Source: Kiritimatiellia bacterium (lineage in GTDB: Bacteria > Verrucomicrobiota > Kiritimatiellia > RFP12 > UBA1067). Taken from it: a stretch of 64,000 bases of DNA. Position numbers and translations under genes: made by a program. The DNA lies in NCBI GenBank assembly GCA_045636065.1, contig JAZTWW010000049.1, forward strand, positions 5,168-69,167. The letters run 5' to 3'. This document shows, piece by piece, positions 9,339 to 63,840 of the stretch. Within the stretch, counting starts at the first letter, position 1; each line of letters begins with the position of its first letter. Below the pieces are notes generated by a model. That model was not told the DNA's origin and searched no databases. It saw nothing but the letters and a program-made list of their open reading frames with translations.

Positions 9339-12300
9339 TCACTCTTCCGTAATCACGTTGAGATCGACGGGGATCGACCTCTTGATCTGAAGTCCGCTTA
9401 CAGGCTCCTTCTCGGTGAAGTAGAGCGTACCGCTCGCGAAGGGCCTCGTGACGATATCCTCCGTGCCGTCGCCGCAGCCGCAGTCGTCCCAGCCGGGGAG
9501 AAGCGCGCACTTGTAAGTGCCTGTAAGGTACTTGCCGCTTGAGAACGTGACGCGGGCCGTGCCGGAGACGATGCCTGTCGCCTTGGCGTAGGACATCGTT
9601 ATGACGCCCACCTTGCCGGAAAGGCTGAATCCGCTCGACTTGGCCGTTGCAACGGCGCTCGGGACCGATGCTATCGATCCGTTGATGCCGTCCGCGGCGT
9701 AGCTCGGGTCGATCGAGACCGCGAACTTGCGCGACAGGTAGAGATCCTCGTAGTCGAACATCTCGCATATCTTAAGGGGCGAAAGGCTCTTCGTGAAGTA
9801 CCCGCCGTAGGCGAGAAGCGTCACCGCATACTCGTACCTGCCGTTCGTCTCCCTGTGGAGCATGTAGTTGACGAAGCCGGGGATGTCCTTAATGACCTGG
9901 AGCTGCGATGTGTCGTCGCACGTCTCGGCGGCATCGGCGCAGATCGTGACGGCTATGCCCGTCACATCCTTCTGGGCGCGCTTGAAGATGTAGAGCTTCG
10001 CCTTCTTCGCGTTCTCGGGATTGGCCGTCAAGGACACGGAGCCGTTCACGTACTGGCCGTCGGGGAGATAGCCGACATACGTGACACGCCCGTTTCTGAC
10101 GGCGGCGGTGGATGTCATCGTAAAGGTGATGTATCCCGTGCCGTGAGGCTCATAGATGCTTCCCGCCTCGGCCTCGCCCGCGCAGATGTCCCTGTTGGGG
10201 AGCGTCACCGTGTAGTAGCCCGTGAAGGACTTCCACACACCGGTCTCCTTGGCAGGCGTCTCGTTTACGGTGAGCGGGCCTTCAAAGTAGTTGGAGACGC
10301 CTTCGAGCGCGCCGGAGATCGTTCCCTCGGTGTCAAGGCTGAGGACAAGGGTGGATCCCTTGGAGTTCTTGAGCATCGCAAGGGCCGTCCCCGTTTCGGA
10401 TTCTATGTCCTCCCACGCGCCGGTGAAGGTCGTCACGGTGCTCTCGGTGCTCTGGAACTTTGCGGTGATCCTGTTCTTGGCGGTTACGCTCACCGTGAGC
10501 TCGCCCACGACTATCGTGCCGTCCTCATGGTCGTGGATGACTGCGCACGTGTTGTTGTACGCCTTGTTCGTGTAGGGGTTCTTCTCGGCGGGGTCGTCCA
10601 CGGTGAGGGTGAACGTGGTGGGCGTACCGGTCGTCTTCTTGCCGCCGACAGTCGTCGTGATAGTGAACGAGGCGGTGAACGTACCCTTCACGGTGGGCGT
10701 ACCGGAAAGGACGACAGCCTTCTTGACGCTATCGTACTTGAGCGTCACCCCGGCGGGAAGAGCGCCTGACTTCTTCGTGAGAGTCACCGTGCCGTTCGTG
10801 ACGTTGTAGACGCCGAACTCCACACCAGATGCGAAGTTCTGGTACAGCCCGACATCGTACTCCGTCTCTTCGAAGACGGGGTCGGTGGAGTCGCTTACCG
10901 TAAGCTTGTGGTCAGTTTCGTCGTCAAGCGTCGCGCCGGTGGGGAGCTTCACGGCCTCAAGGCCGAATACGGTGTACTCCGAAGGCGAGAACTGCTGGTT
11001 GTCGAAGAGCGTTACCGTTATCGACTTCTCGCCCGACTCGCCGTCGTTCCACGAGAGGGTGAGATCCTGCGGGATCGTGACGCGGCCCTCCTCGATCGTG
11101 CCGCCCTGCTCCTTTACGGTGAGCTTGACGGACGCAGCTCCGCTCGAACCGCCCGTTCTCTGGACGGCGACGGTGGCTGCACCGTTGAAGCTGAACGCCG
11201 TCTGCTCGGTCTTGACGAACTCGAATTCGCCAGGCTGCCAGATCTGGTACGTGACGACCGTCGCCTCGCCGGCGCCGTACTGCGTGGGAACTACGACATC
11301 GCCGGAATCGGTAGCCCTGAAGTAGAGGCCCTTTCCGTCGACGTCTTCAAGCCCTTCGACGCCTGTTATGTCGCCGATTCCCTGGATGCGGTAGATTTCG
11401 TCCTCGACGACGCGGATCGCAAGGAATCCGGACGACGTCGTGTAGCTCTTGGACGACTCCGCGGGGATCACGAGAACGGACGAGGAGAGCGTGTACGGTG
11501 CCGTTGCGTCGCCAGGATAGGCGAGCGCGAAAAGGTTGGTCTTGTTCGTCGCCGCAGGACGGGTGGCCCTAACGGTCACGTAGTACTCGGCCTCTCCGTC
11601 AACCTCGCAGTCGAGAGCGATATAACCCTGGGAGAGATCGCCAGTCGCCGTCGCAATCTCCTCAAGGTAGTCTTCGCCGTCTTCGTCTTCGGCGACTACG
11701 GAAAGGGCGAGCGTCACCTCGGCAGGGGCGGCAAGCTCGCTGCTGGGCGAAAGCGTCAGTTTCGCCATCGCATCGGCGCCCACCTCCATCTCGTACATGT
11801 CGATCGTATCGGCGCCGGAGAGCGTACCCTTTACGGACTCTTCAAGCTCGAACGAGTTCTCGCACATCGCAAGCTCTGTATCCTCCTCGGCATCGTCTTC
11901 CTTGAGGGCGAGAAGCTCCTCAAGGCGCAGGATCGTCGGGGCGACGCCCGCATTCTTGATGTAGCTGCTCGAGGTGGTGTACTCCGTTATGCGCCCGGCG
12001 ACGGTGCCGTCGTCCCTCACCGCAAAGAACGTGGGAACGCCCGTGCGCTCCTGGTCTGAAAGCTTCCAGTCCTCGTAGGCAAGCTGGTGGTTGCGATCAT
12101 AGATATCCTTCGCATCGGCGCTTGAGATCCCCTTGCGGCTCAGGTACTTTGCTCCCCCTTCAGATGCATAGGAGAGGAGCGTATTGTTGGGATCCTTCCT
12201 GCTGGGAAGATCGATCGTGACGAGCGTAACCTTGGTGTCTCTCGCCCACTCGATGAATTCATCCTGGTACTGGAGATACGACTTCACGTTCGCGCAGTCC

Positions 12301-51671: not shown

Positions 51672-52847
51672 TCAATACGCAAGGACTTTCGCCAGCGCGG
51701 CGACGGATGCGCGCGTCTCGGCGGAAAGCGCTCCCTTGAGCGTCACGACAGGCTCCGCGAAGGTGATCTCCTTGGACTTCTCGAACATCCCCTTGATGAT
51801 TCTCGCCGCCTGCGGCGCCCACGATCCGTTCTCCACTATCGCGACGGTGCGCTTCTGGTAGAGGCGCTCGACGAGCGCGAGGACGAACTCCTCCATCTTC
51901 GGGAAGACGCCCGCGTTGTACGTGGTGGTGGCGAGAACGAGCTTCCCGTAGCGGAACGCATCCTCAACCGCCTCGTGGAAATCCTCGCGCGCGAGATCGG
52001 CCATCGACACCTTCGGGCAGCCCGCCTTGACGAGCTCGTCCTTCAAAAGCTCCGCGGCCTCCTTCGTGTGGCCGTAGACGCTCGTGTAGGCGATGAAGAC
52101 GCCTTCCGTCTCGACTCCGTACGACGACCACACGCCGTACTTCGCGAGCGCGTTTGCGAGGTCCCCGCCTTTGAGGACGTATCCGTGCAGAGGGCAGACA
52201 GTCTCGATTGCGAGCGCCGCGGCCTTCTTGAGAACGGCCTGCACCTGCATGCCGTACTTGCCGACGATGCCAAAGTAGTACCTGCGCGCCTCGCAGTCCC
52301 ATCCCTCGTCGTCCTCGACGTCGTTAGCGCCGAACTTGCCGAACCCGTCGGCGGAGAAGAGCGTGCGGCTCTTGGCGTCGTAGGTCATCACCACCTCGGG
52401 CCAGTGCACCATCGGGGCGGCGATGAACGAGAGGACGCGCCCTGCTCCAAGGTCGAGCGTCTTCCCTTCGCCAACGACAACGCGCCTCCCGGCGAAATCG
52501 GTGCCGAAGAACTGCGCCATCATCTTGAACGCCTGGACGCTCGAGACGATCTGCGCGTTGGGGTACGCCTGGGCGAACGCGGCGATGCCAGAGGAGTGGT
52601 CGGGCTCCATGTGCTGGACGATAAGGTAGTCCGGCTCGACGGACGCGGCCTTGATGTTATCGAGCCACACATCGGCGAAGCGGCCGTCCACCGCGTCCAT
52701 CACCGCAGTCTTCTCGCCCCTTATAAGGTAGCTGTTGTACGCCATACCGTTGGGAACGGCGAACTGCCCTTCAAAGAGATCGATCTTGTGATCGTTGACT
52801 CCGACGTACTCGATGCCCTCTGCAACCGTCATGTCGTAGAAATTCAT
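51672..52847 (-). CDS. fprA: Flavodiiron protein (FprA family A-type flavoprotein; O2/NO reductase)
   Basis: 391 aa. Metallo-beta-lactamase-like diiron site H.EPDH (VQHMEPDHSSG). C-terminal flavodoxin-like domain (LVLATTTYNAG). Confidence 0.85.
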   Translation of the reverse strand: MNFYDMTVAEGIEYVGVNDHKIDLFEGQFAVPNGMAYNSYLIRGEKTAVMDAVDGRFADVWLDNIKAASVEPDYLIVQHMEPDHSSGIAAFAQAYPNAQIVSSVQAFKMMAQFFGTDFAGRRVVVGEGKTLDLGAGRVLSFIAAPMVHWPEVVMTYDAKSRTLFSADGFGKFGANDVEDDEGWDCEARRYYFGIVGKYGMQVQAVLKKAAALAIETVCPLHGYVLKGGDLANALAKYGVWSSYGVETEGVFIAYTSVYGHTKEAAELLKDELVKAGCPKVSMADLAREDFHEAVEDAFRYGKLVLATTTYNAGVFPKMEEFVLALVERLYQKRTVAIVENGSWAPQAARIIKGMFEKSKEITFAEPVVTLKGALSAETRASVAALAKVLAY

Positions 52848-52848
52848 C

Positions 52849-54459
52849 TCAAAACTCCAGTTCTCTTTCCATCTTTGCGATAAATGCGTCGATCGTCATG
52901 CGCTCCTGCTGCATGGAATCGCGCTCGCGCACAGTAAAGGTGCCGTCCTTCACGCCCTCGGGATCGACCGTGATGCACCACGGCGTTCCGATCTCGTCCT
53001 GGCGGCGGTAGCGCCTGCCGATCTGGCCGCTTTCGTCCCAGAAGACGTTCACCTTCTTCCTCAGCTTGAGGAATATGTCGCGCGCCATCTTCATCGACGT
53101 CTCGTCCTTCTTGACGAGCGGGAATACGGCCACCTTGACGGGGGCCACCTTCGGATGGAACCGGAGGACCGTGCGGACGTCCTCCTTGCCCTTGGCGTCC
53201 ACAAGCTTCTCCTCCTCGTAGGCCTCGCAGAGAAGAGCGAGCATGAGCCTGTCGACACCGGCGGAGGGCTCTATCACATGGGGGATGTAGCGGCCGTTGA
53301 AAAGATCCTCGCAGAAGCTCTTCGCCTCGGCCTCGACCTGCTCCTTCGCCTCGTGCGTCTGGGGCTTCTTGCGCGCCACCCATTCGGCCTGCGTCTTCGC
53401 GATGAACGCCGCGCGCGCCGCATCGTCCATCCCCTTCGCCGCCTGCTTGAGCGGATCGTCGAAGACGCTCTGCGGTTCGCCGGAGTGGATCTGGTGCTGC
53501 CTCAGGTCGAAGTCGCTTCTGGCGGCGATGCCCTCAAGCTCCTGCCTGCCGAACGGGAAGTCGTACTCGATGTCGACGCAGGCCCTGGCGTAGTGCGCGA
53601 GCTCGTCGGGCTTCTGCCAGTATTCGACGAAACGCTCGGGCGGAAGGCCGACGGCCGTAAGGAAGCGCTTGCGCTGCTCGACCCAGTACTTGTGCCAAAC
53701 CTCCCAGCCCCAGTCGTCCTGCGGCTCGCCGGCGAGGTCGGGGTTGTCCGCAAGCGTGACGACATGGCCGTGGAGGATCTCGACGGCCTCGTCGGGGCGG
53801 ATGAAGAACTCTAGCTCCATCTGCTCGAACTCGCGGCTCCTGAAGGTGTAGTTCCTCGGAGTCACCTCGTTGCGGAAGCTCTTGCCCATCTGCGCTATGC
53901 CGAAGGGAACCTGGAAGCGGCTCGTGGAGACGACGTTCGTGAACTGCGCGAAGATGGCCTGCGCCGTCTCGGGGCGGAGGTACGCGACGTTCGAGGGGTC
54001 GTCGATCGGGCCGACGACCGTCTTGAACATGAGATTGAAGGGCTTGGGCTCGGTCATCTCGCCGCCGCAGTACGGGCAGGAGAGCGTCCCTTCCGGGTTG
54101 TGCGGCTTGGGCTTATGCTTCTGCTCGGCGAGGATGTCGCCGATCTGGTCGGCGCGCATGAGCTTCTTGCACTCCTTGCACATCGTCATCGGATCCGAGA
54201 ACGTGTCGAGGTGGCCCGACGCCTTCCAGATCTTCGGGTGCATTATGATCGTCGCATCGAGGCCGGCAACGTCCTCGCGGCCCCTCACGGTGAACTGCCA
54301 CCAGGCGTCCTTCACGTTGCGCTTGAGTTCGCATCCAAGCGGGCCGTAGTCCCAGAAGCCCGGCATTCCGCCGTATATCTCCGAAGAGTGGTAGATGAAT
54401 CCGCGCCGCTTGCAGAGCGATGCCAGCGGGTCGAGAGTGGATTTGTTCTCCTCTGCCAT
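52849..54459 (-). CDS. glyQS: Glycine--tRNA ligase (dimeric alpha2 type)
   Basis: 536 aa class-II aaRS. RRGFIYHSSEIYGGMPGFWDYGPLG..LK.N...W. Zn-binding CPYCGG. Anticodon-binding C-terminal domain. Confidence 0.95.
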   Translation of the reverse strand: MAEENKSTLDPLASLCKRRGFIYHSSEIYGGMPGFWDYGPLGCELKRNVKDAWWQFTVRGREDVAGLDATIIMHPKIWKASGHLDTFSDPMTMCKECKKLMRADQIGDILAEQKHKPKPHNPEGTLSCPYCGGEMTEPKPFNLMFKTVVGPIDDPSNVAYLRPETAQAIFAQFTNVVSTSRFQVPFGIAQMGKSFRNEVTPRNYTFRSREFEQMELEFFIRPDEAVEILHGHVVTLADNPDLAGEPQDDWGWEVWHKYWVEQRKRFLTAVGLPPERFVEYWQKPDELAHYARACVDIEYDFPFGRQELEGIAARSDFDLRQHQIHSGEPQSVFDDPLKQAAKGMDDAARAAFIAKTQAEWVARKKPQTHEAKEQVEAEAKSFCEDLFNGRYIPHVIEPSAGVDRLMLALLCEAYEEEKLVDAKGKEDVRTVLRFHPKVAPVKVAVFPLVKKDETSMKMARDIFLKLRKKVNVFWDESGQIGRRYRRQDEIGTPWCITVDPEGVKDGTFTVRERDSMQQERMTIDAFIAKMERELEF

Positions 54460-54471
54460 TTTGTCCCTGTC

Positions 54472-54900
54472 CTATTTCTGCTTTGTTGCCTGGATGCGTC
54501 CCTGCGCATCGCGGTACGTCGTCTTCCCGTAGCTGTCGGTGGTGGAAGTCCCCGTTATGCGGCCCATGGCGTCGCGGTATGTGGTCTTCCCGTAGCTGTC
54601 GGTGGTGGAAGTCCCCGTTATGCGGCCCATGGCATCACGGTATGTGGTCTTCCCGTAGGAGTCGGTTGTGGCAGTTCCCTGCTGGCGGCCCATCGCGTCG
54701 CGGTACGTGGTCTTTCCGCGGGAGTCGGTGTCGGCGGTTCCCTGCTTGCGGCCCATTGCGTCGCGGTACGTGGTCTTCCCGCGGGAGTCCGTGTCGGCAG
54801 TCCCCTTCTGGCGGCCCATCGCATCGCGGTAGACCTCCTTCGAACCTGCAAACGAGACCGCCGACATGGCGGCAAGCGCAACAACGAGGATGTTATTCAT
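54472..54900 (-). CDS. Small secreted protein made of 21-aa tandem repeats (YRDAMGRxxGTxxTDSxGKTT x5 plus a partial copy)
   Basis: Start at MNNILVVALAAMSAVSFAGS (ATG complement 54898-54900; AAGGAG RBS). The ORF-track 5' extension is unsupported. Protein is almost entirely repeats. Confidence 0.6.
   Translation of the reverse strand: MNNILVVALAAMSAVSFAGSKEVYRDAMGRQKGTADTDSRGKTTYRDAMGRKQGTADTDSRGKTTYRDAMGRQQGTATTDSYGKTTYRDAMGRITGTSTTDSYGKTTYRDAMGRITGTSTTDSYGKTTYRDAQGRIQATKQK
54507..54880. repeat. 63-bp tandem repeat, about 5.9 copies (coding repeats of the small secreted protein)
   Basis: Repeat-initiating cat(g/c)gcg recurs at 54565, 54628, 54691, 54754, 54817 (exact 63-bp spacing). Units are about 85-95% identical. 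Confidence 0.85.
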
Positions 54901-54927
54901 GCCACACTCCTTTCTTACAGGCTTGAT

Positions 54928-54936
54928 ATTATACCA
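54928..54936 (-). promoter_or_regulatory. Putative extended -10 (TGGTATAAT on minus strand) for the repeat-protein gene
   Basis: Minus strand reads ggggTGGTATAATatcaagcc, 28 nt upstream of the ATG. Confidence 0.4.
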
Positions 54937-55427
54937 CCCCCAAGCCCCCAAATCAAGCCGTAAATCGCACTCGGCGGATTTAGGGGGAAGGAGGATCAAT
55001 GGAGAAAGCGAATTAGGGGAAGGGATACAAGGGATCAAAGGGATCTAAGCGATAAATCCGATGAATGGACTGTGAATGGGCGCGGCACCTCCTCGCTTCC
55101 CCGTCTATGCCTCCATCCTCCATCCGAGCGGAGCCAAGGGTGAAGCCGCTCAGTTTAGCCGCATGGGGTGGCAATATGGGGGTGGCAGAGGCGAAATATA
55201 GTCCATAGAGCTTGGAGGCCTTTCGCCCCGGCGACGTTTCGCCGAGCCGGTGCGGCACTAACGCATGTAATCAAACTCTCTTGGCGAGGCGAACCGAGCG
55301 AGGGCCCGAATTATTCTCTCAAGCTAATAAACTTATGGGCCCGAGCGTTCGCCGGGGCGAGAAAGGCCGGAAAGCCCCGAAGATCATTGCGCAGCCTGCC
55401 ACCAAAACTGCGCGAGCCCCATGCGCG

Positions 55428-55556
55428 CTATGAGCGGTTCCCGCCCATTGCGGAGCGCAAACCGATGTATGTCGCCCCGAAGACCCGCCCTTCACCATAT
55501 TCCGCCACTAGCATCTGGGCGATTACTTTGGGGACAGCCTCTGATAAAATCCTATG
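55428..55556 (-). pseudogene. Remnant duplicating the 3' end of gene 58205..59320 (encodes ...ILSEAVPKVIAQMLVAEYGEGRVFGATYIGL...)
   Basis: ORF 55428..55697 C-terminus aligns with the C-terminus of the 58205..59320 product (ILSEAVPNEIAQMLVAEYGEGRIFAPPYIGL). Lies within the left direct repeat. No intact upstream coding region. Confidence 0.5.
55462..55551. repeat. Left copy of a ~90-bp direct repeat flanking the R-M cassette (partner 58239..58328)
   Basis: Shared ccgatgtatg...cgcccttcaccatattccgccactagcatctgggcgat(t/a)(t/c)(c/t)(a/t)ttggggacagcctctgataaaatc. 66-bp core with 3 mismatches, plus a 10-bp upstream match. Confidence 0.85.
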
Positions 55557-57207
55557 AGAATGCAAAATACTGCTCGACCATTTTCTGGCAACGTCTGCCG
55601 CCTGCCCTTGAAACGACGCGTTCCACACATGTATCGATTTTCGCAATATCACGCTCTCCATAAAGCCCGACAAGAGAATCAATGTCTTGCGCATCAAGGC
55701 TGTCCCATGCCGGTATGTGTACGCTCCTGAGATTCTGCGCCTGATAGCGAATGCTTCCGCCTCGCATCTGTGTCGAAAAGCGCCTCACTTGATCCGTGAC
55801 AAAGGAGCTTCGCAATATGACGCACAGTGCCTTCATATTCCACGAATTAGATGTTATCCAATACACGTTATGGTGCGGATAATATTCGCCATGTTCATCT
55901 AGCGCCACATTGCCGCCCTTCTGGATGTCAGGCAAAAGTATCTTTACGGATTTGAGCGTGCTGTACTTGATTCTGTCAAGTGTCCTATACCATGAGTCAG
56001 GATGTTTCCGCGCGCAGTAGCGGGATTTCAGCTTTTCGGCATTATTGTTCAAGTATGCCCTGGCTTTGGGGAACCTGTCCAAATCAAGCATAAGTCTGTC
56101 GTCAAAATGATCGTATGGATTAAGCATGTATCTGCTGTTCCATTCGATACATCCATCCCTAATGTCATCTGACGTTACAAGCGGCAGAAGACAAGATTCC
56201 TCTATTTCCGCATTTTTCTGGGGATCCAGGTAGATTTCATCGGCCCCTGACGCGACGCCTATGCCGACATGCGTGCCGACGCCAGATTCCTCGATTGTAG
56301 GGAATCTGCCGGCAATATCCTCCAGCCGCGCCTTTTCGTCTCTGTCGGTGCTCGCCCAAGGCTCACCATGTCGATACCATTTGTCGAAGCGGCACAAGCA
56401 TGATTTTGCAACGCCTGTCATGCACATAGACAAAGCATCGCCCTCGATTGACGAAATCTCTCCGGCATATGTCTCTCGCCCGACATGACGATCAATTACG
56501 TATATCGCCGGATATGCCGACACTGCGGTCTCAAAAGGCTGCGAATGCTCCATGTTCAAGTAAAGCGCCACATGGAAATCCTCGCCTATCATATGTCTCA
56601 GACGCTTCCCGTAGTTGGTTCTGACGAACCTATTGGAGCAGATGAACGAGAGAACGCCGCGTTTCGACAAAAGCGATAGTGACCGCTCGAAAAACGGCAC
56701 GTAAATGTCGCACCGTTCAGTGAACGTGGCATACCGCGCCTTGTACCATTTTTGCTTATCGGTTGATAGATTGTCAAAGCGTATATATGGCGGATTGCCA
56801 ATCACCACGTCGAAATGGGCACCTTCAAAATCGTAAAGAAGAAAATCCTCGCAGAAGAACCAGCGATCGACAAGCCTTTCGCAAACATCTTCCGGACAGC
56901 CAGCACAGACAAGTTTTGCCTTTACGGACTTGCGGACCAGCGAAATACTTTCACTGGAAATATCGAATGCTGCAAGAAAGCCGTCAAGTGATTCATCGCG
57001 CCAGTCGGGCGTCTCGGAAATAAGCGAGTCAACAATTGGCAACACAAACGCACCATCCCCGCAACTTGGCTCAAGAATCCGCAGCCCGCTCCATTTGCTA
57101 AAGCCGCCGGCGCGTCTGGTCTCGTGCATCATGTATAAAACGACCTCCGGGCGCGTGAATACGGCGCCTGTCGTTCGATGAGTAGGGACTGAGATGCCGA
57201 GTTTCAC
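55552..57207 (-). CDS. Gamma-class N6-adenine DNA methyltransferase, TaqI-like family (size and architecture as in M.PaeR7I/M.XhoI)
   Basis: 551 aa. N-terminal TGAVFTRPEVVLYMM (TaqI-like T.PEVV motif), SCGDGAF (motif I), VIGNPPYIRFDNL (motif IV NPPY). GTG start overlapping the upstream stop (GTGA). Visibly AT-richer codon usage than neighbours. Confidence 0.8.
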   Translation of the reverse strand: MKLGISVPTHRTTGAVFTRPEVVLYMMHETRRAGGFSKWSGLRILEPSCGDGAFVLPIVDSLISETPDWRDESLDGFLAAFDISSESISLVRKSVKAKLVCAGCPEDVCERLVDRWFFCEDFLLYDFEGAHFDVVIGNPPYIRFDNLSTDKQKWYKARYATFTERCDIYVPFFERSLSLLSKRGVLSFICSNRFVRTNYGKRLRHMIGEDFHVALYLNMEHSQPFETAVSAYPAIYVIDRHVGRETYAGEISSIEGDALSMCMTGVAKSCLCRFDKWYRHGEPWASTDRDEKARLEDIAGRFPTIEESGVGTHVGIGVASGADEIYLDPQKNAEIEESCLLPLVTSDDIRDGCIEWNSRYMLNPYDHFDDRLMLDLDRFPKARAYLNNNAEKLKSRYCARKHPDSWYRTLDRIKYSTLKSVKILLPDIQKGGNVALDEHGEYYPHHNVYWITSNSWNMKALCVILRSSFVTDQVRRFSTQMRGGSIRYQAQNLRSVHIPAWDSLDAQDIDSLVGLYGERDIAKIDTCVERVVSRAGGRRCQKMVEQYFAFS

Positions 57208-57923
57208 GATTGTGCAACTAGATGATTGTAGAGCGACGAGAAGAAACGCATGGCACCAACAGCCTCACCTCCATCGCACACCGAAGCTGTCGCCTTGTCA
57301 GATACCAGAAGCGCCGTGGCCGTATAATCGCGTTCTAGCACAAGTCGTTCGCAAAGAATCTCGTATCGCCTGAGATAGCTTGTGCCTTCAAACACGGGAA
57401 GCGGCGGCAACGGGCTTTTGGCAATATTGACGGCACGATCTGAAGCAGGGGAATTTTCCAAGAAAAACAGATAACCAAGCCAAGGTGCAGGCACGACGCC
57501 AAAAACGCGCTCACGGTATGCCGTCCAAAAATCCCGTGACACGCCAAGCACTTCTTCTGAACGGTTGTTGAAATTATTCCCGAAACTGCCGCTTTGAGAC
57601 TTCAACTCTATCGCCGCGACGAGCTTGCCTTCACGAAGCACTACAATGTCCCAGTTTTTCTGCGGCCGATAATATCCCGGAACTGGAACAGCCCTGTCGA
57701 AAAATATCTCAGTTTTTGCGAACCCTGCCATTACGCAAATTTCCTCGATTAGCTTGGCAAAGCCATCGAGATGGCGGCCACCCGTAACTTGGCCTCGCGT
57801 TCCAGCATCGGAAGTGCCACGCTTTTTCTGCGCTGACGCCTGCTGTTGCCGCGTTTTCCAGTAAAACTTGGCCGCTTTCTTCAGCTTTTGCTGGAATTCA
57901 GTTTCTGTATAAGGAAATGACAT
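57204..57923 (-). CDS. Putative type II restriction endonuclease (size and context suggest XhoI/PaeR7I family)
   Basis: 239 aa from MSFPYTETEF (ATG complement 57921-57923; the ORF track extends to 57965). Immediately upstream of and overlapping the MTase. No recognisable family match otherwise. Acidic/Lys active-site candidates (DIVVLREGKLVAAIELKSQ). Confidence 0.5.
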   Translation of the reverse strand: MSFPYTETEFQQKLKKAAKFYWKTRQQQASAQKKRGTSDAGTRGQVTGGRHLDGFAKLIEEICVMAGFAKTEIFFDRAVPVPGYYRPQKNWDIVVLREGKLVAAIELKSQSGSFGNNFNNRSEEVLGVSRDFWTAYRERVFGVVPAPWLGYLFFLENSPASDRAVNIAKSPLPPLPVFEGTSYLRRYEILCERLVLERDYTATALLVSDKATASVCDGGEAVGAMRFFSSLYNHLVAQS

Positions 57924-57929
57924 GCTGAT

Positions 57930-57938
57930 ATTATACCA
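57930..57938 (-). promoter_or_regulatory. Putative extended -10 (TGGTATAAT on minus strand) for the R-M operon. Predicts a leaderless or near-leaderless endonuclease mRNA.
   Basis: Minus strand reads aaaaTGGTATAATatcagcATG. The -10 ends 7 nt before the ATG at 57923. Confidence 0.35.
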
Positions 57939-58204
57939 TTTTCCTTTCTGGGACTGCAACTGCAACTTTTCTTAAAAGCTCCGCAATGGGCGCAACGCTC
58001 ATAATCCGCATGGGGGGCGCGCAGTTTTGGGTGGCAGGGTTCGCAAATGGTTCGGGGCTTTTCGGCCTTTTTCTCGCCCCGGCGATCGCGAGGAAGCATT
58101 TTTAGGGGATGTGCCCGAGCCGGGGCAGCTCTCGGGCAACGCTTACGCACATCCAATCCGCCATAATGCTTCTGTAATCGTCGGGGCGAAAAGGCCTCCA
58201 AGCC

Positions 58205-59320
58205 TTATGGGCTATGGGGGAATGATGCGGGCTTAAGGCCGATGTATGGGGGCGCGAAAATGCGCCCTTCACCATATTCCGCCACTAGCATCTGGGCGAT
58301 TTCATTGGGGACAGCCTCTGATAAAATCACAATTGCGCCGTGATTCTGGATAAAATTTGCAATTTCACCAAAGAGAGACTGACAAGCAGGATTTGATGCC
58401 AAAGAGGGCTGTCCCCGATTCTCAAGGGGCTGTCCCCAATTTAGATGGCGGAAAACCGCATTATTTTGGGCTACTTCGGCAAATATCCGCTTCTGGAAGA
58501 CTGTTGCGGATGGGTTGGCGGTGGTGAAACGGCATTTCCAGGCGGAGACCTCCTCTTCGGTATTGAGCACCCTCCCTTGGGCTGGCGACCATAGGCCCAT
58601 ATCCACATCAAATCCGAGCTCTTCAAACCAGAACACCGCAACAGCCATCCGCCCGGTTCCCACCTTCTTCGTGAGCATTGGGAGATTTGGGGCCGTGGAA
58701 CCGCCTGAGGATTGGGAGAGACTTGGAACGTCAGATGCGGGCTGCGGCGGTTCTGCGCTTTTCGCCGATGGCCACCAGTGGGGGAGGCCGTTCTGGGCGA
58801 TGAAGTTGCGCATAAGGGCGCGCGGCTCTTCGATATTGCCGGTAAGCACATGATCCCAGAGGGGAGGCGAATCGACGCCGGCAATATCGGCGAACGGCCT
58901 CGTGAACGTCTTTAGAACATGTTTCGGAACGGCCGGCGAAAGGATCACATAGGTGCCAGACTCCTTTACGACCCCTGCGAGAAAACTCGCCATTTTCCCG
59001 GAATCCGCATCAATTTCGCTAAATTCAACCGTTTCACTTGGGGACTGTCCCCAATTCCCGCATGGTGCCAGACTCCCTTCTGAGGGAAATGTTGCCAATG
59101 TGGAAATGTTGCCAGGTCCAATACCAATGTTGCCAATTGGATATTGTGAACTGGAATTGGCAACACTGGCAACATTGGCAACATTTTCAGATGGAACCGC
59201 CGAAATAGCATATGCACCATTCTGGCGCGATACGCACAGATATGGCACTTCGCCAAGCGCGAAATAGGCGTACATCACATTCCGTCCCACATGCGGGATG
59301 CTTACTGTCTCAGATAGCAT
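58205..59320 (-). CDS. Hypothetical protein (371 aa). The 3' end is duplicated at 55428..55556. Contains several internal DNA repeats and palindromes.
   Basis: No recognisable domain. N-terminal ENVANVASVAN...IGNIGIGPGNI region encoded by a symmetric repeat array. WGQSP/WGQP/EAVP segments encoded by GGGGACAGYCCC motifs. Confidence 0.5.
   Translation of the reverse strand: MLSETVSIPHVGRNVMYAYFALGEVPYLCVSRQNGAYAISAVPSENVANVASVANSSSQYPIGNIGIGPGNISTLATFPSEGSLAPCGNWGQSPSETVEFSEIDADSGKMASFLAGVVKESGTYVILSPAVPKHVLKTFTRPFADIAGVDSPPLWDHVLTGNIEEPRALMRNFIAQNGLPHWWPSAKSAEPPQPASDVPSLSQSSGGSTAPNLPMLTKKVGTGRMAVAVFWFEELGFDVDMGLWSPAQGRVLNTEEEVSAWKCRFTTANPSATVFQKRIFAEVAQNNAVFRHLNWGQPLENRGQPSLASNPACQSLFGEIANFIQNHGAIVILSEAVPNEIAQMLVAEYGEGRIFAPPYIGLKPASFPHSP
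58239..58328. repeat. Right copy of the ~90-bp direct repeat (partner 55462..55551)
   Basis: See left copy. This copy forms the 3' coding end of gene 58205..59320. Confidence 0.85.
59085..59190. repeat. Symmetric array: 3x AATGTTGCCA followed by 3x TGGCAACA(T/C) (its inverted complement), inside the CDS
   Basis: Read directly: aaatgttgccaatg..aaatgttgccaggt..caatgttgccaatt ... attggcaacac tggcaacat tggcaacat ttt. Forms a ~100-bp imperfect palindrome centred near 59145. Confidence 0.8.
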
Positions 59321-59426
59321 GGCGGATTCCTTAAATTCGATTCCCAGATATTCCTATAATATGCCATGATAATGAAAGCGGCGGGCGGTTGCCCGCCCGC
59401 CGCTTTGTGCCGGATTGGATGGGTGG

Positions 59427-62400
59427 TTACTCGGCGGGATACGCGGGGATCCCGTCCTCATAGGCGCTTACCGCAATCTTGAAGTAGCGCACGCCACTGT
59501 CGACCACTGGAGCCTGGAGTGAGGTGGAGCTTGTTTCAGCCTGCACAACATTGCCGCTTTCAACCTTCATGGTTCCATCAGCCGTAGCGCCATAAACAAC
59601 ACCATAGTAAAGGCCAGGAATTGTCTTTACGGTGAATGTCGTATTGGCCGAAGCTACAGCCATTGGAGTTGTCGCAGTGTCAACCTCTGGCTTTACACTT
59701 ACGCCGTTCACGGATTTACTCTCATCAAGCATAAACTTCACTTTGTATGTACCGTCGCCCATATCGATCAGATACTTTCCTGTAGTATCCTGACCTATCT
59801 TCTGGGCATCCACAAAAGCCTGAGTGACATTTGCGCCGTTACTCCCGGATGTCCAAATCTGCACATTATTCAAAGTGCCAATGTTGGATACCGTAATTCC
59901 AGTGAAAGTTGTTTCATCGCTTGTCGGAGTCACTTTGATGAGCGTTGCAGAAGATGGAATGGAGATTTCCGAAGTCGTATTGGTAATTACCGCAGTACTT
60001 CCATCCATGTAGCCATACGAGACGAGCTTGAGGGCACCAGCGACAGGCGTAACGTTGTAAAGTCCGTTGGCAACGGTCACCTTGGAAACATTAGTCTCCG
60101 TCGTAATTGAGCTCGAGGAGAGAATTGTAACTTCGTCGGCATCAAGACCGGTAGCATCAATCGTAAGCGTCTCACCTGCTCCTGTTGGCAGCGTGACCGT
60201 GCCAGAAACGGTAAGCGCAGTATCAGCGGCCTTGAAGGTTGCGCCATCGCTGAACGTCAGGTTGCCAGTGAGCGTGCCTGTGCCGCCGAACGTACCAGAA
60301 ACCGTCGTCGCACCAACCCACGTGCCGGTCAGGTTAACGGAACCGCTAATCGTAGCGGGGATGGTTACATCCTGCGTACCAGACAGCGTGAGCGTACCGC
60401 CCGTTCCGCCGACATTGAACTGCGTGATGCGGTTCGAGACGAACTTGCCGCTCCATTCGGTATCCTTCGACTGCGTGACCGTGAGGGTTCTGTCATTCGC
60501 ACCACCGCTCGTGGCGTTCCAGTCGGAACGGATATTCTTTGAACCAGCCAGATTGCCGATGGTAGTTGTGCCGTTATTGTTCTTCGTGATAATCAGCGAG
60601 TCCGCAAGCTCAACCTGAACTGTCAGCGTCGTAGCAGGCATCTTCGCATCATCGCTTGGGAACGTACGCCATCCAGCCGTGGATGAATACTTGATCATAC
60701 CTGTGCCGGTGACGGTTGAATAATCTGAATAGTCTTCAGCGTTTGCCGTGCTTGTCAGCTCGAGAACGCCGGTGTCGCCAAGCGTCATGTTCGTGCCGCC
60801 GCCCCATCTGTCACGGCCAGTTGTTGTGAATGTTCCATCAACTACAATGCCACCGGTCGTCCAAAGGAATCCTGAGTCTTTAAGAATAACATTACCTCCT
60901 TCGTCAATGAACAAACCACCGGCAGGGCCATTGTTGAAATTACCAAGGCTGAGAACTTTCCCATTCCCCACAACAACCGAGCTGGCGACAAACTCACGAC
61001 TTGTAGAGCCAACCACAAAGCGGCTATTGTCTCCACCTGCTGAAAGGTATCCATCAAACTCGGAAAGATCGCCCGTAAGATACACCGTCTTCTTGGCAAT
61101 GCCTGTAGTTGCCAGATTGTATGTGCCAGATCCAGTCACTTTGCTGGGAACAGTAATAGATACATCAGACGATGTATAATTGCCATCCTGCGTAAACCCA
61201 CCGGAGCCGATAATCAGCTCGCCGATGTTGTGGGCGTCGTTCCCAAGGGCGAGATATGCCTCGGTTCCATTCATGCAAACTTTAGAGCCCGTGTTGCCAT
61301 ATAACGCAAGTTGAATATTTGCGTTGAAATTATGATTCTTGATTTCCACTGTTCCCGCCCAGTTGGCATTCTTCCACCACGCATCTGCAGTTGGGGAGGG
61401 AGCCTTGCCGTCAAACACGACCGTGCCGGAGCCCTTGACGAGCGAAGTCGATGTGGAACCGGTCGTCGCCGCCATGCTTCCCGTTGCGGTAAGCGTGCCA
61501 TTCACTATGAAGCCGTTGTTCACGCTCCAGGTCTTTCCGCTGGGAATCTCGACCGAAGAGCCGGAGTTCACGACGACGTAGCCACCGCCGCTAACCGTTG
61601 CCTGCGTCGGTAGCGACGACCCAAAGACGACAATCTTGTTATTCAACTCGAACGAGCCACTGAAGTTGTCCCATTTCTTTACAAGAAGCAATACGTTCGG
61701 CGCCGAATCAGATCCCTTCAACAGACCGCTGCCCTTGAGTTCGCGAAGCTGCGTACGACTGCCATTATTGGAATTGTAACCGTTACCATTGCTGAGCCAC
61801 AATGCATACTCGCAATCACCATCCAGTTCAAGCGCAGGGGCGACATCCGTAGTGCCAGTATTTATCCAGCCCTTGAGCATACTAACCTTCAACGTCGAAC
61901 TATTGTTGCCATATTCGTTCATGTCAAAGGATGAACCAACGAGGTTGCTGATGTTCTTGACCCAGACCGTGCCGGACCAGCCAATGGCCGTCCAACCCTT
62001 GCCAGTGACAGGGGCGGAACCATTGTACACAACCATGCCTGCGCCGGTGAAGGTGGTGGCGTCGAGGCGATCGGCGTTGACGTTAAGAACGACGTCCTTG
62101 GCAACGTCGATGGTGGCGGCGGTGATCTTCTCGCTGCCGGAAAGCGTCAGCGTACCAGAACCAGTCAAGTAAACCGTGCCGGACAGATTCTTTTCTTCAT
62201 TAACAGCATATTCCGTGGCGCCATCGACAGCAATCTCGAGGTCGTTCTCGCCGACTTCCGGCACATACTCAACGACCTGAATAGCAGCAAAGCATCCGCG
62301 GGCGGACGGGGTACCTCCGCCAATACGGTGCGCTACCATAGTAACGGTATCGCCGGTAAGGACGGCGGAGACGAGTGTATTCACGCCTTCCTCAATCGGT

Positions 62401-63740
62401 TCTGCACTATTAGACGCGCCAGCGTTGCCCCAGGATGTTGTACCTGTCTGCTGAACTCCATTAACATATGTGAAGTTGAAGCCGTTGATGGTATCGTAGC
62501 CGAACTGGGCTCCATCCTGATCAGTGGAGTGATAGACGATAACGCGATAATGCTCGTAAGGGATGCCTGTGATTGTAACAGTCGGGGTAGGCCCGCCAGC
62601 ACTTTCGTCGATATAGCCGTGGAGCGGATTGCTCGCTGGTGTGAGGTTGGCGCAGTTCCAGTGTCCGCGAGTGCCAGAAATCGAGACGCTAACGCCGGAA
62701 GCCACGGAGGCCGCGCCGGTGGAATCGATGGCGTTGACGGTGTTGAACGTTGCATTGTCGGCCACAACAAAATTGTTCCAGGAAGTTCCGGGGACTGCAT
62801 AACCATCAAGACCGACATCGGCAGAGGTCGTGAGGCCGTTGCCCGCATCGTTCGTGAAGTTGATGTTGATGGACGGGGTGTAGGCCGCTTCTGCTGGATC
62901 GCCATCGACATAGTAGAGAACGATGCCAGTTGAGGTCTGGACGAGTTCGCAAGTGCCGACCTTCTCGCTTCCAGTAAGCGTGGTAGAGCCAGAGGTGACG
63001 GACGAAAGAGCTTTGGTGCAGACAAGATTTCCTTCAGAATCCTTTATCTTGATTGACGCATCAGCTGTGAAGGTGGGCGTAGAAGAGGTGAAGGAAACGA
63101 GCGTCTTGGACGACACCTGCGAAGTGCCGGTAAGCGTGACATCCGCCATCTTGATCTTGTGGTAGGCGGCGGAAACGGCCTGGTACGAGACGCTGCCCGC
63201 ACCCTTCAGGTAATATTCAAATGTGTTGTTGGCATTGACAGACGTGAGGTCAACATTCCACGCAATGCCGTTCGCTCTGGCCACGGAAAGCTTGATTGCC
63301 TGACCATCGGTAATATTGCCGCCGCCAAAGCCGCCTATCGTCAACTGCGAGGTTTCGTCAACGGTCATCCACATCGTAGTGTCGCCCTGATACTTGACGA
63401 AGGTGTTCATCGTGACGTTGGCGCCGTTGTAGAGACCCATGCGAAGGTTCCAGCCCTCAACCGACATCGTGGCGTTGATGTTGATGGTGTCGCCGTCAAA
63501 AAGGATTGGATCCCATGTGTTTTCGCCGGACTTCGCGGGTGTGCCAGACGGATTAGCACCGCTGGAATCCTGCCAATTTCCCGTGCCATTCCACGCATCA
63601 GTGCCGACGAACTTCCACGTGTAGTTCTCAGTTTCACCGGTGACGGGGTTCGGCTTCGCAAAGTCCGCCCATGCGCCTCCATATGCCGCGACTGCCAAGA
63701 GCAGCGCGAACGCTTTGATTCTACTCATTAATGATTTCAT
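59427..63740 (-). CDS. Giant (1437 aa) secreted beta-helix repeat protein with autotransporter-associated (PATR-like) beta-strand repeats. Putative adhesin.
   Basis: Signal peptide MKSLMSRIKAFALLLAVAAYGGAWA. Strong GAAGGAG RBS. Recurrent G.GTLTL.G...T....V..G.L-type segments (GSGTLTLSGSEKITAATIDVAKDVVLNVN; GGTGGTLTLSGTQDVTIPATISGSVNLTG). Thr/Ser/Gly/Asn-rich. Confidence 0.7.
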   Translation of the reverse strand: MKSLMSRIKAFALLLAVAAYGGAWADFAKPNPVTGETENYTWKFVGTDAWNGTGNWQDSSGANPSGTPAKSGENTWDPILFDGDTININATMSVEGWNLRMGLYNGANVTMNTFVKYQGDTTMWMTVDETSQLTIGGFGGGNITDGQAIKLSVARANGIAWNVDLTSVNANNTFEYYLKGAGSVSYQAVSAAYHKIKMADVTLTGTSQVSSKTLVSFTSSTPTFTADASIKIKDSEGNLVCTKALSSVTSGSTTLTGSEKVGTCELVQTSTGIVLYYVDGDPAEAAYTPSININFTNDAGNGLTTSADVGLDGYAVPGTSWNNFVVADNATFNTVNAIDSTGAASVASGVSVSISGTRGHWNCANLTPASNPLHGYIDESAGGPTPTVTITGIPYEHYRVIVYHSTDQDGAQFGYDTINGFNFTYVNGVQQTGTTSWGNAGASNSAEPIEEGVNTLVSAVLTGDTVTMVAHRIGGGTPSARGCFAAIQVVEYVPEVGENDLEIAVDGATEYAVNEEKNLSGTVYLTGSGTLTLSGSEKITAATIDVAKDVVLNVNADRLDATTFTGAGMVVYNGSAPVTGKGWTAIGWSGTVWVKNISNLVGSSFDMNEYGNNSSTLKVSMLKGWINTGTTDVAPALELDGDCEYALWLSNGNGYNSNNGSRTQLRELKGSGLLKGSDSAPNVLLLVKKWDNFSGSFELNNKIVVFGSSLPTQATVSGGGYVVVNSGSSVEIPSGKTWSVNNGFIVNGTLTATGSMAATTGSTSTSLVKGSGTVVFDGKAPSPTADAWWKNANWAGTVEIKNHNFNANIQLALYGNTGSKVCMNGTEAYLALGNDAHNIGELIIGSGGFTQDGNYTSSDVSITVPSKVTGSGTYNLATTGIAKKTVYLTGDLSEFDGYLSAGGDNSRFVVGSTSREFVASSVVVGNGKVLSLGNFNNGPAGGLFIDEGGNVILKDSGFLWTTGGIVVDGTFTTTGRDRWGGGTNMTLGDTGVLELTSTANAEDYSDYSTVTGTGMIKYSSTAGWRTFPSDDAKMPATTLTVQVELADSLIITKNNNGTTTIGNLAGSKNIRSDWNATSGGANDRTLTVTQSKDTEWSGKFVSNRITQFNVGGTGGTLTLSGTQDVTIPATISGSVNLTGTWVGATTVSGTFGGTGTLTGNLTFSDGATFKAADTALTVSGTVTLPTGAGETLTIDATGLDADEVTILSSSSITTETNVSKVTVANGLYNVTPVAGALKLVSYGYMDGSTAVITNTTSEISIPSSATLIKVTPTSDETTFTGITVSNIGTLNNVQIWTSGSNGANVTQAFVDAQKIGQDTTGKYLIDMGDGTYKVKFMLDESKSVNGVSVKPEVDTATTPMAVASANTTFTVKTIPGLYYGVVYGATADGTMKVESGNVVQAETSSTSLQAPVVDSGVRYFKIAVSAYEDGIPAYPAE

Positions 63741-63840
63741 TGGATTACTCCTTCTCTCTCTTTTGAATTAAAGTTGATTGTTGGAAATGGATTGTCTTTG
63801 GACGCGGGCATGTGCAGCCAAGTCCATTACCAGCGTCTCC

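Follow-up and report, generated by a model that had tools for sequence, protein, structure and literature searches.

The 64,000-nucleotide window analysed here, from contig JAZTWW010000049.1 of an uncultured Kiritimatiellia bacterium, holds a restriction–modification (R-M) pair, endonuclease R and methyltransferase M, between two 90-bp direct repeats (D1 and D2) at the 3' end of another gene, which we call the target gene. From the sequence evidence, we are very confident of three linked statements taken together: the pair is an intact Type II system of the XhoI/PaeR7I family, it was inserted into the last ~40 codons of the target gene, and D1, behind M, is the displaced original end of that gene while D2, now joined to it, is the replacement. 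Our best overall explanation, to which we give a probability of about 0.6, adds that the unit entered by homology. The features on which the argument rests are as follows, in window coordinates with the strand in brackets.

55124..55197 (no strand): native flank beyond X, collinear with the empty-site relative
55198..55456 (minus): X, a conserved, apparently non-coding element that natively follows the target gene, 98% identical to contig L001
55462..55551 (minus): D1, read as the displaced ancestral 3' coding segment of the target gene, orphaned downstream of M and contiguous with X as in the empty site
55552..57207 (minus): M, a gamma-class N6-adenine DNA methyltransferase, 551 aa, intact (Pfam, PADLOC, PDB and a plasmid homologue)
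57204..57923 (minus): R, an XhoI/PaeR7I-family Type II restriction endonuclease, 239 aa, intact (Pfam, PADLOC and homologues)
57930..57938 (minus): putative R-M promoter, an extended -10-like box, TGGTATAAT, conserved 6 nt upstream of the R ATG
57978..58215 (plus): X', part of the insert between R and D2, a diverged copy of X in opposite orientation that the empty site lacks
58216..58238 (minus): s, a 23-nt spacer with no empty-site counterpart, encoding with the edge of X' the new tail KPASFPHSP*
58239..58328 (minus): D2, the 90-bp segment copy now joined to the target gene and read as its replacement end
58205..59320 (minus): target gene, 371 aa, last 10 residues replaced, with no match to any Pfam, NCBIfam or PADLOC family

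The insertion is visible against relatives that lack it. The target gene is lineage-restricted, with just four homologues in 5.8 billion proteins; a profile search added one distant fragment whose flank is too short to show X, and exact-protein look-ups with the target gene, a glycyl-tRNA synthetase (GlyRS)-like gene and M matched no record. One homologue, P0001 (93% identical), sits on three ENA metagenome contigs, L001–L003, which are identical at the site and were counted as one lineage. Window positions 58239–59406 correspond to L001 11082–9916 and positions 55124–55551 to L001 11421–10993; the two alignments overlap on one 90-bp copy of D (L001 10993–11082), and L001 has no match to 55552–58238. 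The original prediction had placed an insertion at the 3' end of this gene and proposed a search for an empty site, and all three contigs carry exactly that: a single D and no R-M genes. On a further contig, L004, which bears a homologue 48% identical to the target gene, gene, D and X are contiguous in their native orientation. The inserted DNA measures 2,687 bp (55552–58238), or 2,777 bp with one repeat copy, and R and M are its sole genes; as had been noted earlier for an integrase, no recombinase or other open reading frame (ORF) lies between the repeats. Identity of the target gene to L001 stays at 93–97% per 60-nt block right up to D2 (93.5% overall, with 93.0% in the upstream spacer), so any foreign DNA begins inside D. 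The insertion appears to postdate the split of the host lineage from its nearest sampled relatives.

The ends of the gene distinguish the two repeats. All homologues end ...YIGLRSAMGGNRS, which matches the coding of the left-hand remnant, and the C-terminal ending ...PPYIGLRSAMGGNRS is present in P0001, P0002 and, in diverged form, P0003. D1 encodes ILSEAVPKVIAQMLVAEYGEGRVFGATYIG followed by LRSAMGGNRS*, as in P0001 and P0002; the ancestral tail RSAMGGNRS* lies in the first ~28 nt of X (in gene orientation), with its stop codon at 55428–55430. The window's own gene ends YIGLKPASFPHSP instead, its end reading ...PPYIGLKPASFPHSP from D2, the spacer s and the edge of X', with the stop codon of the new tail at 58205–58207; the replacement tail equals the old one in length. 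Because the ending of the homologues, which retain the native tail at 93%, 69% and 48% identity alike, is encoded by D1 and the first bases of X, we read D1 as the displaced original end and D2 as its replacement. The earlier suggestion that the insert brought a replacement end thus stands, and the polarity that went with it is reversed: the left copy had been taken for a decayed duplicate of the right one, whereas D1 is the ancestral end with only two private changes. Nor is the ORF at 55428..55697, once proposed as a gene remnant, a gene as a whole; upstream of D1 it overlaps the 3' end of M in another frame.

Profile searches identify both members of the pair. R matches the Pfam XhoI family (PF04555) at 8e-68 (228.5 bits against a cutoff of 25; residues 46–228 of a 253-aa form against model positions 2–185 of 191) and the PADLOC model REase_II over its full length at 5.5e-68 (residues 8–234 against 6–237 of 247). 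M matches Pfam Eco57I at 7.8e-26 (91.6 bits, cutoff 25.3) and PADLOC MTase_II at 6e-141 (residues 10–531 against 19–548 of 563), and it contains the motifs FTRPEVV, LEPSCGDGAF and GNPPY; its TaqI_C match is weak (9e-4, 19.9 bits, under the cutoff of 26.5). Among solved N6-adenine methylases in the PDB, M resembles M.BseCI (1e-27), CamA and M.TaqI (7e-6). R has no relative among solved structures, and no NCBIfam model gives it a name. Two starts are available to R, an ATG giving 57204..57923 (239 aa) and a TTG giving 57204..57965 (the 253-aa form); the ATG form is the one seen in databases, including a 100% identical protein, P0004. The length of M equals that of its homologues on contigs L087–L090. 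On the minus strand, the junction of the two genes reads ...CAATCGTGAAACTC, where the R stop codon TGA and the M start codon GTG share GTGA in a 4-nt overlap. The ORFs and their junction are thus as first described, and the assignment to the XhoI/PaeR7I class that had been drawn from pairing and size now has family models, matched end to end in PADLOC, and plasmid homologues behind it. The two genes form an intact operon of this family in which R comes first and M would be translationally coupled to it through the overlap.

PaeR7I/XhoI pairs on plasmids (Pseudomonas aeruginosa pHPA0698-3, NZ_CP137509.1; Methylocystis parvus pMpar-2) likewise join a PF04555 endonuclease to an Eco57I/TaqI-like methyltransferase in adjacent, co-oriented genes of similar size (239 and 551 aa here, 246 and 554 aa there). 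A plasmid search found R to be ~41% identical to genes annotated 'PaeR7I family type II restriction endonuclease'; against the P. aeruginosa pair, R is 41% identical end to end and M 35% over residues 14–531, target-recognition region included. The plasmid pairs run M then R, whereas here and in the relatives that we found the order is R then M with the 4-nt overlap. Since gene order does not define the family, the reversed order marks a variant and does not exclude membership. The pair here also differs in being chromosomal and in having a -10-like box that abuts the R ATG, and at 40% identity a common specificity is no more than possible.

That box recurs. The sequence TG(G/A)TATAAT-N6-ATG is kept before R on L005, L006, L007, L008, L086/L087 and L092 despite unrelated flanks, and its presence 6 bases before the R ATG in all relatives inspected suggests a leaderless R-M transcript with a conserved promoter. 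The pair is a probably active Type II system, possibly a CTCGAG isoschizomer. Avoidance of CTCGAG was considered as a clue to specificity and dropped as uninformative: the window has 22 sites against a Markov expectation of 39.7 (ratio 0.55), a depletion no stronger than that of many other palindromes, and none at all in 52541–60111.

The family is common and its settings vary. More than 340 homologues of R are found at E<=1e-60, most of them 239 aa long and several labelled Kiritimatiellae, and a GTDB scan with R returned 80 loci; the R-then-M arrangement is widespread in Kiritimatiellota-like metagenome-assembled genomes (MAGs). The closest other cassettes are on L086–L091 (85% identical in R, 78% in M), L005–L008, L092 and L093. 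Their similarity to the window spans ~55552 or 55694 to ~57941–57947, and their flanks are unrelated to it, although some resemble each other (L008 and L086). None of the cassettes inspected has flanking direct repeats, and D and X are absent from eight inspected contexts (L005–L010, L086–L093), which share just 55552–57947 with the window. Because the R-M family occupies at least six unrelated contexts in related MAGs, mobility is supported. The sharp ends of the shared homology, at the M stop codon and the -10 box, were considered as element termini and set aside, because at 70–77% coding identity non-coding flanks could not be aligned anyway. A resemblance to 'IGLSAAM' in the N-terminal extension of P0007 was weak and proved to be chance, and a phage origin is unsupported, with no match to GenBank phages and R homologues in IMG/VR only 42–46% identical. 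As an observation on the relatives, the genome with an 85%-identical cassette on L086 has two PIN-domain toxin genes with small upstream partners within 5 kb (L086 5248–6888), so that its R-M pair sits in a toxin–antitoxin and defence neighbourhood.

Self-comparison of the window yields three significant repeats: a 63-bp tandem array, D1/D2 and X/X'. The ~90-bp direct repeats first picked out by inspection are identical at 81 of 90 positions (BLAST E 4e-29), including unbroken blocks at positions 1–24 and 28–66 in gene orientation (24 and 39 nt), and the M-side edge of the repeat coincides precisely with the M stop codon. Compared with the one copy in L001, D1 is identical at 77 of 90 positions and D2 at 72. 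A derived 24-nt patch is found in both D1 and D2 and is missing from L001 and P0002; it encodes IAQMLVAEY where the relatives have IASEMVARY. Outside it, D1 matches L001 at 63 of 66 positions. Over positions 25–34 and 59–90, D2 agrees with L001 at 35 of 42 positions (83%) and D1 at 40 of 42. Private changes number two in D1, both destroying a conserved PP, and seven in D2 (two synonymous, V>I, G>A and KV>NE).

The inverted repeat X/X' (55198–55456 against 57978–58215, E 1e-23), which the original prediction missed, also frames the cassette. Together with 74 nt of flank, native X is 98.2% identical to L001 (window 55124–55461 against L001 11083–11421), above the figure for the target gene, and it follows the 48%-identical gene on L004 in the same orientation (L004 1100–1252; 78.8% over the shared part). 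Because it is more conserved than the target gene and retained in the L004 lineage, X looks functional. It holds an internal 18–20-bp inverted repeat (55217–55234 and 55346–55366) around a ~110-nt loop. Small ORFs within X and X' lack a Pfam match, and indels that separate the two copies disrupt them, which is why we take X as non-coding. Rfam finds nothing in 54900–58500, and a consensus fold of three X sequences showed no covariation that could be used; X (~260–330 nt) may be an uncharacterised RNA or regulatory element. Its loop may also have been flipped relative to its stems: the loop at 55242–55259 matches that of X' at 58115–58132 directly (15 of 18, ~2.4 standard deviations above shuffles), and the arms match in inverted orientation.

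X' is a different matter from a fresh copy. In inverted alignment, it is 68.9% identical to X over the full length, 83% over the best 116 nt (55345–55456) and 87% at 55198–55234, so that its distance from native X (82.8%) is similar to that of the X in the distant L004 lineage (78.8%). Since native X is 98.2% identical to L001 and X' is inverted and only 68.9% identical to X, X' has diverged too far to have been copied at the time the unit came in. Within the window, D and X occur at this locus only, and scans for the X family in JGI metagenomes (two pattern scans) and IMG/VR (one) returned nothing or chance matches of 25–32 nt.

Short homology can admit foreign DNA during natural transformation, by homology-facilitated illegitimate or Campbell-type integration, and may duplicate the homologous segment in doing so. 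The arrangement here shares both traits, a short homology that would suffice and a homologous segment that is duplicated, and from it we infer the following route and donor. The R-M unit would first have resided in a more distant lineage, beside that lineage's version of the target gene, and would have been taken up as DNA, either circular or ends-in. Host homologous recombination of one of these two kinds within the 90-bp segment, with no recombinase of the unit's own, would then have integrated it, and D2 (from about position 25), s, X', R and M would have arrived together. The imported ~350 bp would represent a diverged 3' region of the target: the 90 bp of D2 in direct orientation, the 23-nt spacer and 238 bp of X' in inverted orientation. 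Integration of this kind would yield the direct repeat, a new 10-residue tail that keeps the gene open and an original end stranded behind M. The target gene would be native-like up to D2 because D was the only homology of the incoming molecule to it. Outside the patch, the divergence of D2 from L001 agrees with that of X', which points to their joint arrival from a distant lineage. Taken by itself, entry by host recombination inside D seems to us to fall slightly short of an even chance.

Several observations weigh against this explanation. The 24-nt patch common to D1 and D2 reads most simply as D2 having been copied from the local D, and under import it calls for gene conversion, a heteroduplex tract or a shared allele; the last is not implausible, because the target gene shows clear mosaicism among lineages. 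The larger number of private changes in D2 lacks statistical significance, and the inversion of X' relative to D2 is left unexplained. We found no donor, that is, no contig with a D2-type tail or with X' beside an R-M pair. Finally, the empty-site DNA comes from essentially one lineage, that of L001–L003, and a short contig, L004.

Insertion of R-M genes between long direct repeats with no recombinase has been described as 'insertion with long target duplication' (Nobusato et al. 2000, Gene 259:99; Furuta, Abe & Kobayashi 2010, NAR 38:2428, PMC2853133). The 2010 survey looked for homologues of R and M in an insert of <20 kb, a direct repeat of >30 bp, an empty site and an absence of mobility genes and high-copy repeats (PMC2853133). 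The present case shares an insert of R and M only that is <20 kb long, direct repeats of >30 bp, the lack of a mobility gene, a related genome with one repeat copy at the empty site and an insert GC content under the genome average. This class is the nearest precedent, and the locus is a clear further example of a known mode of R-M movement, not a new kind of system. The host, an uncultured bacterium of the Planctomycetes–Verrucomicrobia–Chlamydiae (PVC) group, is not among the taxa of that paper (PMC2853133). The repeats differ as well, being 90% identical to each other and 80–86% identical to the empty-site copy where the published table gives 94–100%, and the insert adds an inverted, strongly diverged copy of the target-adjacent element X.

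Read in that original sense, the repeats would stem from fill-in duplication of the host's own 90 bp, with D1 and D2 having diverged since. This is the main rival to import, and an unlikely one in our estimation. Local descent would explain the derived patch at once, the published operational definition covers the case on every point, and the private changes of D2 (two synonymous, V>I, G>A) resemble ordinary coding divergence. Yet this reading offers no account of how unrelated incoming DNA came to have on board a homologue of X, a sequence present twice in 64 kb and found nowhere else. Selection acts on D2 and leaves D1 free, and it is D2 that has more changes; the published repeats, moreover, are more alike than these. 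The repeat data thus pull in two directions, the shared patch favouring local duplication and the private changes of D2, with the diverged X', favouring import; the inverted, diverged X' and the unequal repeats together point towards an imported homologous segment over fill-in duplication.

An alternative closer to the original prediction, which saw an att-like signature here, is that the cassette is a remnant or satellite of an integrase-mobilised island, with D as att, an attP that carried the gene's 3' end and an integrase that acted in trans or has been deleted. Integrase islands at gene 3' ends share repeats derived from the 3' end, a restored ORF and a native end displaced to the far side; the direct repeat here contains identical blocks of suitable kind (24 and 39 nt), and R-M-plus-integrase units in tRNA genes are known (PMC2853133). 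Of the att-like signature, the insertion with a replacement end stands. Site-specific integration is not supported: the nearest cassettes (77–85% R identity) sit at other loci in unrelated contexts without D. No integrase was found in the insert or in the ORFs tested on either side of it (~13 kb leftward, 5.5 kb rightward), an insert of just 2.7 kb leaves no room for lost genes, and an imperfect repeat of 90 bp exceeds typical att cores in both length and divergence. We regard this alternative as clearly improbable.

Less credible still is an ancient structure, in which R-M long stood between duplicated or tandem gene ends and the relatives lost it when their D copies recombined. Such an age would follow from how far X' has diverged from X, and repeats of 90 bp readily delete the DNA between them, so that the site left behind would look cleanly 'empty'. 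Against this reading, D1 and the flank to 55124 are 95–98% identical to L001 and no more diverged than the rest, the native tail is kept by homologues at all three levels of identity, and, if the structure were as old as X' implies, only continual gene conversion would have kept D1 and D2 90% identical.

Two last readings are very improbable. A transposon-like R-M unit bounded by X' and X would fit the inverted repeat that frames R, M and D1 with arms of ~240–260 bp, and R-M units with long flanking inverted repeats are known (PMC2853133), but the empty-site alignment already contradicts it, the arm X being native and present there at 98% identity, the arms are only 69–83% identical, there is no transposase, and no short target-site duplication accompanies the 90-bp repeat. 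An assembly chimera across a short repeat might be suspected, because the window is probably a MAG contig and an independent Logan contig, L085 (SRR18056064), breaks inside the repeat, but the identical blocks of 24 and 39 nt are below large assembler k-mers, two independent mis-joins would be needed, and L085, from the same strain, confirms the order R-X'-s-D2 at 99.9% identity to window 57183–58292, stopping within the 39-nt block common to D1 and D2, as a true repeat predicts.

The surroundings of the cassette are themselves unusual. The cassette had been judged richer in AT than its flanks. This is true relative to the housekeeping genes on the left, where GC at third codon positions (GC3) is 0.87–0.89 against 0.50–0.56 in the R-M genes (overall GC 0.50, window 0.596), and untrue relative to the right-hand neighbours, where the target gene (0.534) and a gene for a 1437-aa protein (0.535) are equally low in GC. 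The cassette is therefore atypical for the core genome yet lies inside an already atypical, variable region. Across 42–64 kb, the ORFs tested encode a class II aminoacyl-tRNA synthetase, a flavodiiron-like protein, components of a type II secretion system (T2SS) and unknowns, and none has an integrase or transposase domain.

Some further observations concern the same region. Collinearity with L001–L003 stops at 55124, where the GC step lies (~55.2 kb), and the sequences leftward of it are unrelated; this is a second rearrangement breakpoint, ~430 bp from the cassette. To its left, the window has a repeat-protein gene, the class II aminoacyl-tRNA synthetase gene and T2SS genes (GC 0.60–0.65, GC3 ~0.87), and in L001–L003 a tandem-repeat tract comes first at this point and then genes for rubrerythrin and peptidase M18. 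The 63-bp tandem repeat at 54422–54831, in 5–6 copies of 62–86% identity, encodes 21-residue repeats KTTYRDAMGRxxGTxxTDSxG in a small protein (ORF 54472..55038, minus strand) that has a signal-peptide-like start, MNNILVVALAAMSAVSFA, and matches no Pfam family. Within the target gene, a ~50-codon insertion (window 59087–59192), absent from P0002 and P0003, consists of nested inverted repeats of a GTTGCCAAT / ATTGGCAAC motif, and the stretch that lies downstream of X in L001–L003 (L001 ~11450–12150) is filled with repeats of the similar form TTGGCAA(C/T). The 1437-aa protein encoded next to the target gene (59427..63740, minus strand) is hypervariable and has no Pfam domain; only the first ~35 codons of its gene and the sequence upstream (window 63666–63771, 94%) match the gene of a 1692-aa protein at the corresponding position in L001 (4819–9897). 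A segmental duplication hinted at by two 536-aa ORFs in the window was excluded by the self-comparison.

Once in place, the unit would behave as an ordinary defence or addiction module, with M methylating an adenine in the recognition site (possibly CTCGAG) and R cutting unmethylated sites. The 90-bp repeats would leave it open to RecA-dependent excision or amplification: an excised circle would carry the junction ...TTCTCATAG + D + CCTTAAGCCCGC, and excision would restore the empty-site junction ...GCAATTGT + D + TTTGCGCTCCGC. A bolder extension, which we offer tentatively and consider somewhat doubtful, is that the unit is a recombinase-free, homology-addressed mobile R-M element in which the diverged gene 3' end and the relic of X serve as an address tag.

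What the locus offers is a bare R-M pair that entered a chromosome with no mobility gene, resolved to the base pair and with an empty site available, in an uncultured lineage, probably of the gut or rumen, outside the taxa in which such insertion has been described. The unequal divergence of the repeats and the presence of X' bear on how such units enter genomes, whether through fill-in that duplicates the target or through capture by way of a homologous segment that they bring along, and with more genomes or read-level data X' and the 24-nt patch could show how recombinase-free R-M units enter chromosomes. Kobayashi and colleagues have proposed a 'virus-like life cycle' of R-M systems whose excision and re-infection steps lack evidence (PMC2853133). 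If the unit is indeed an address-tagged element, it could exit as a circle through its 90-bp repeats and then, by host RecA-type recombination, integrate into the corresponding gene of a related lineage, whose reading frame would stay open. It would then provide direct sequence evidence for those two steps, and it would mean that 'long target duplications' can be imported instead of made at the target.

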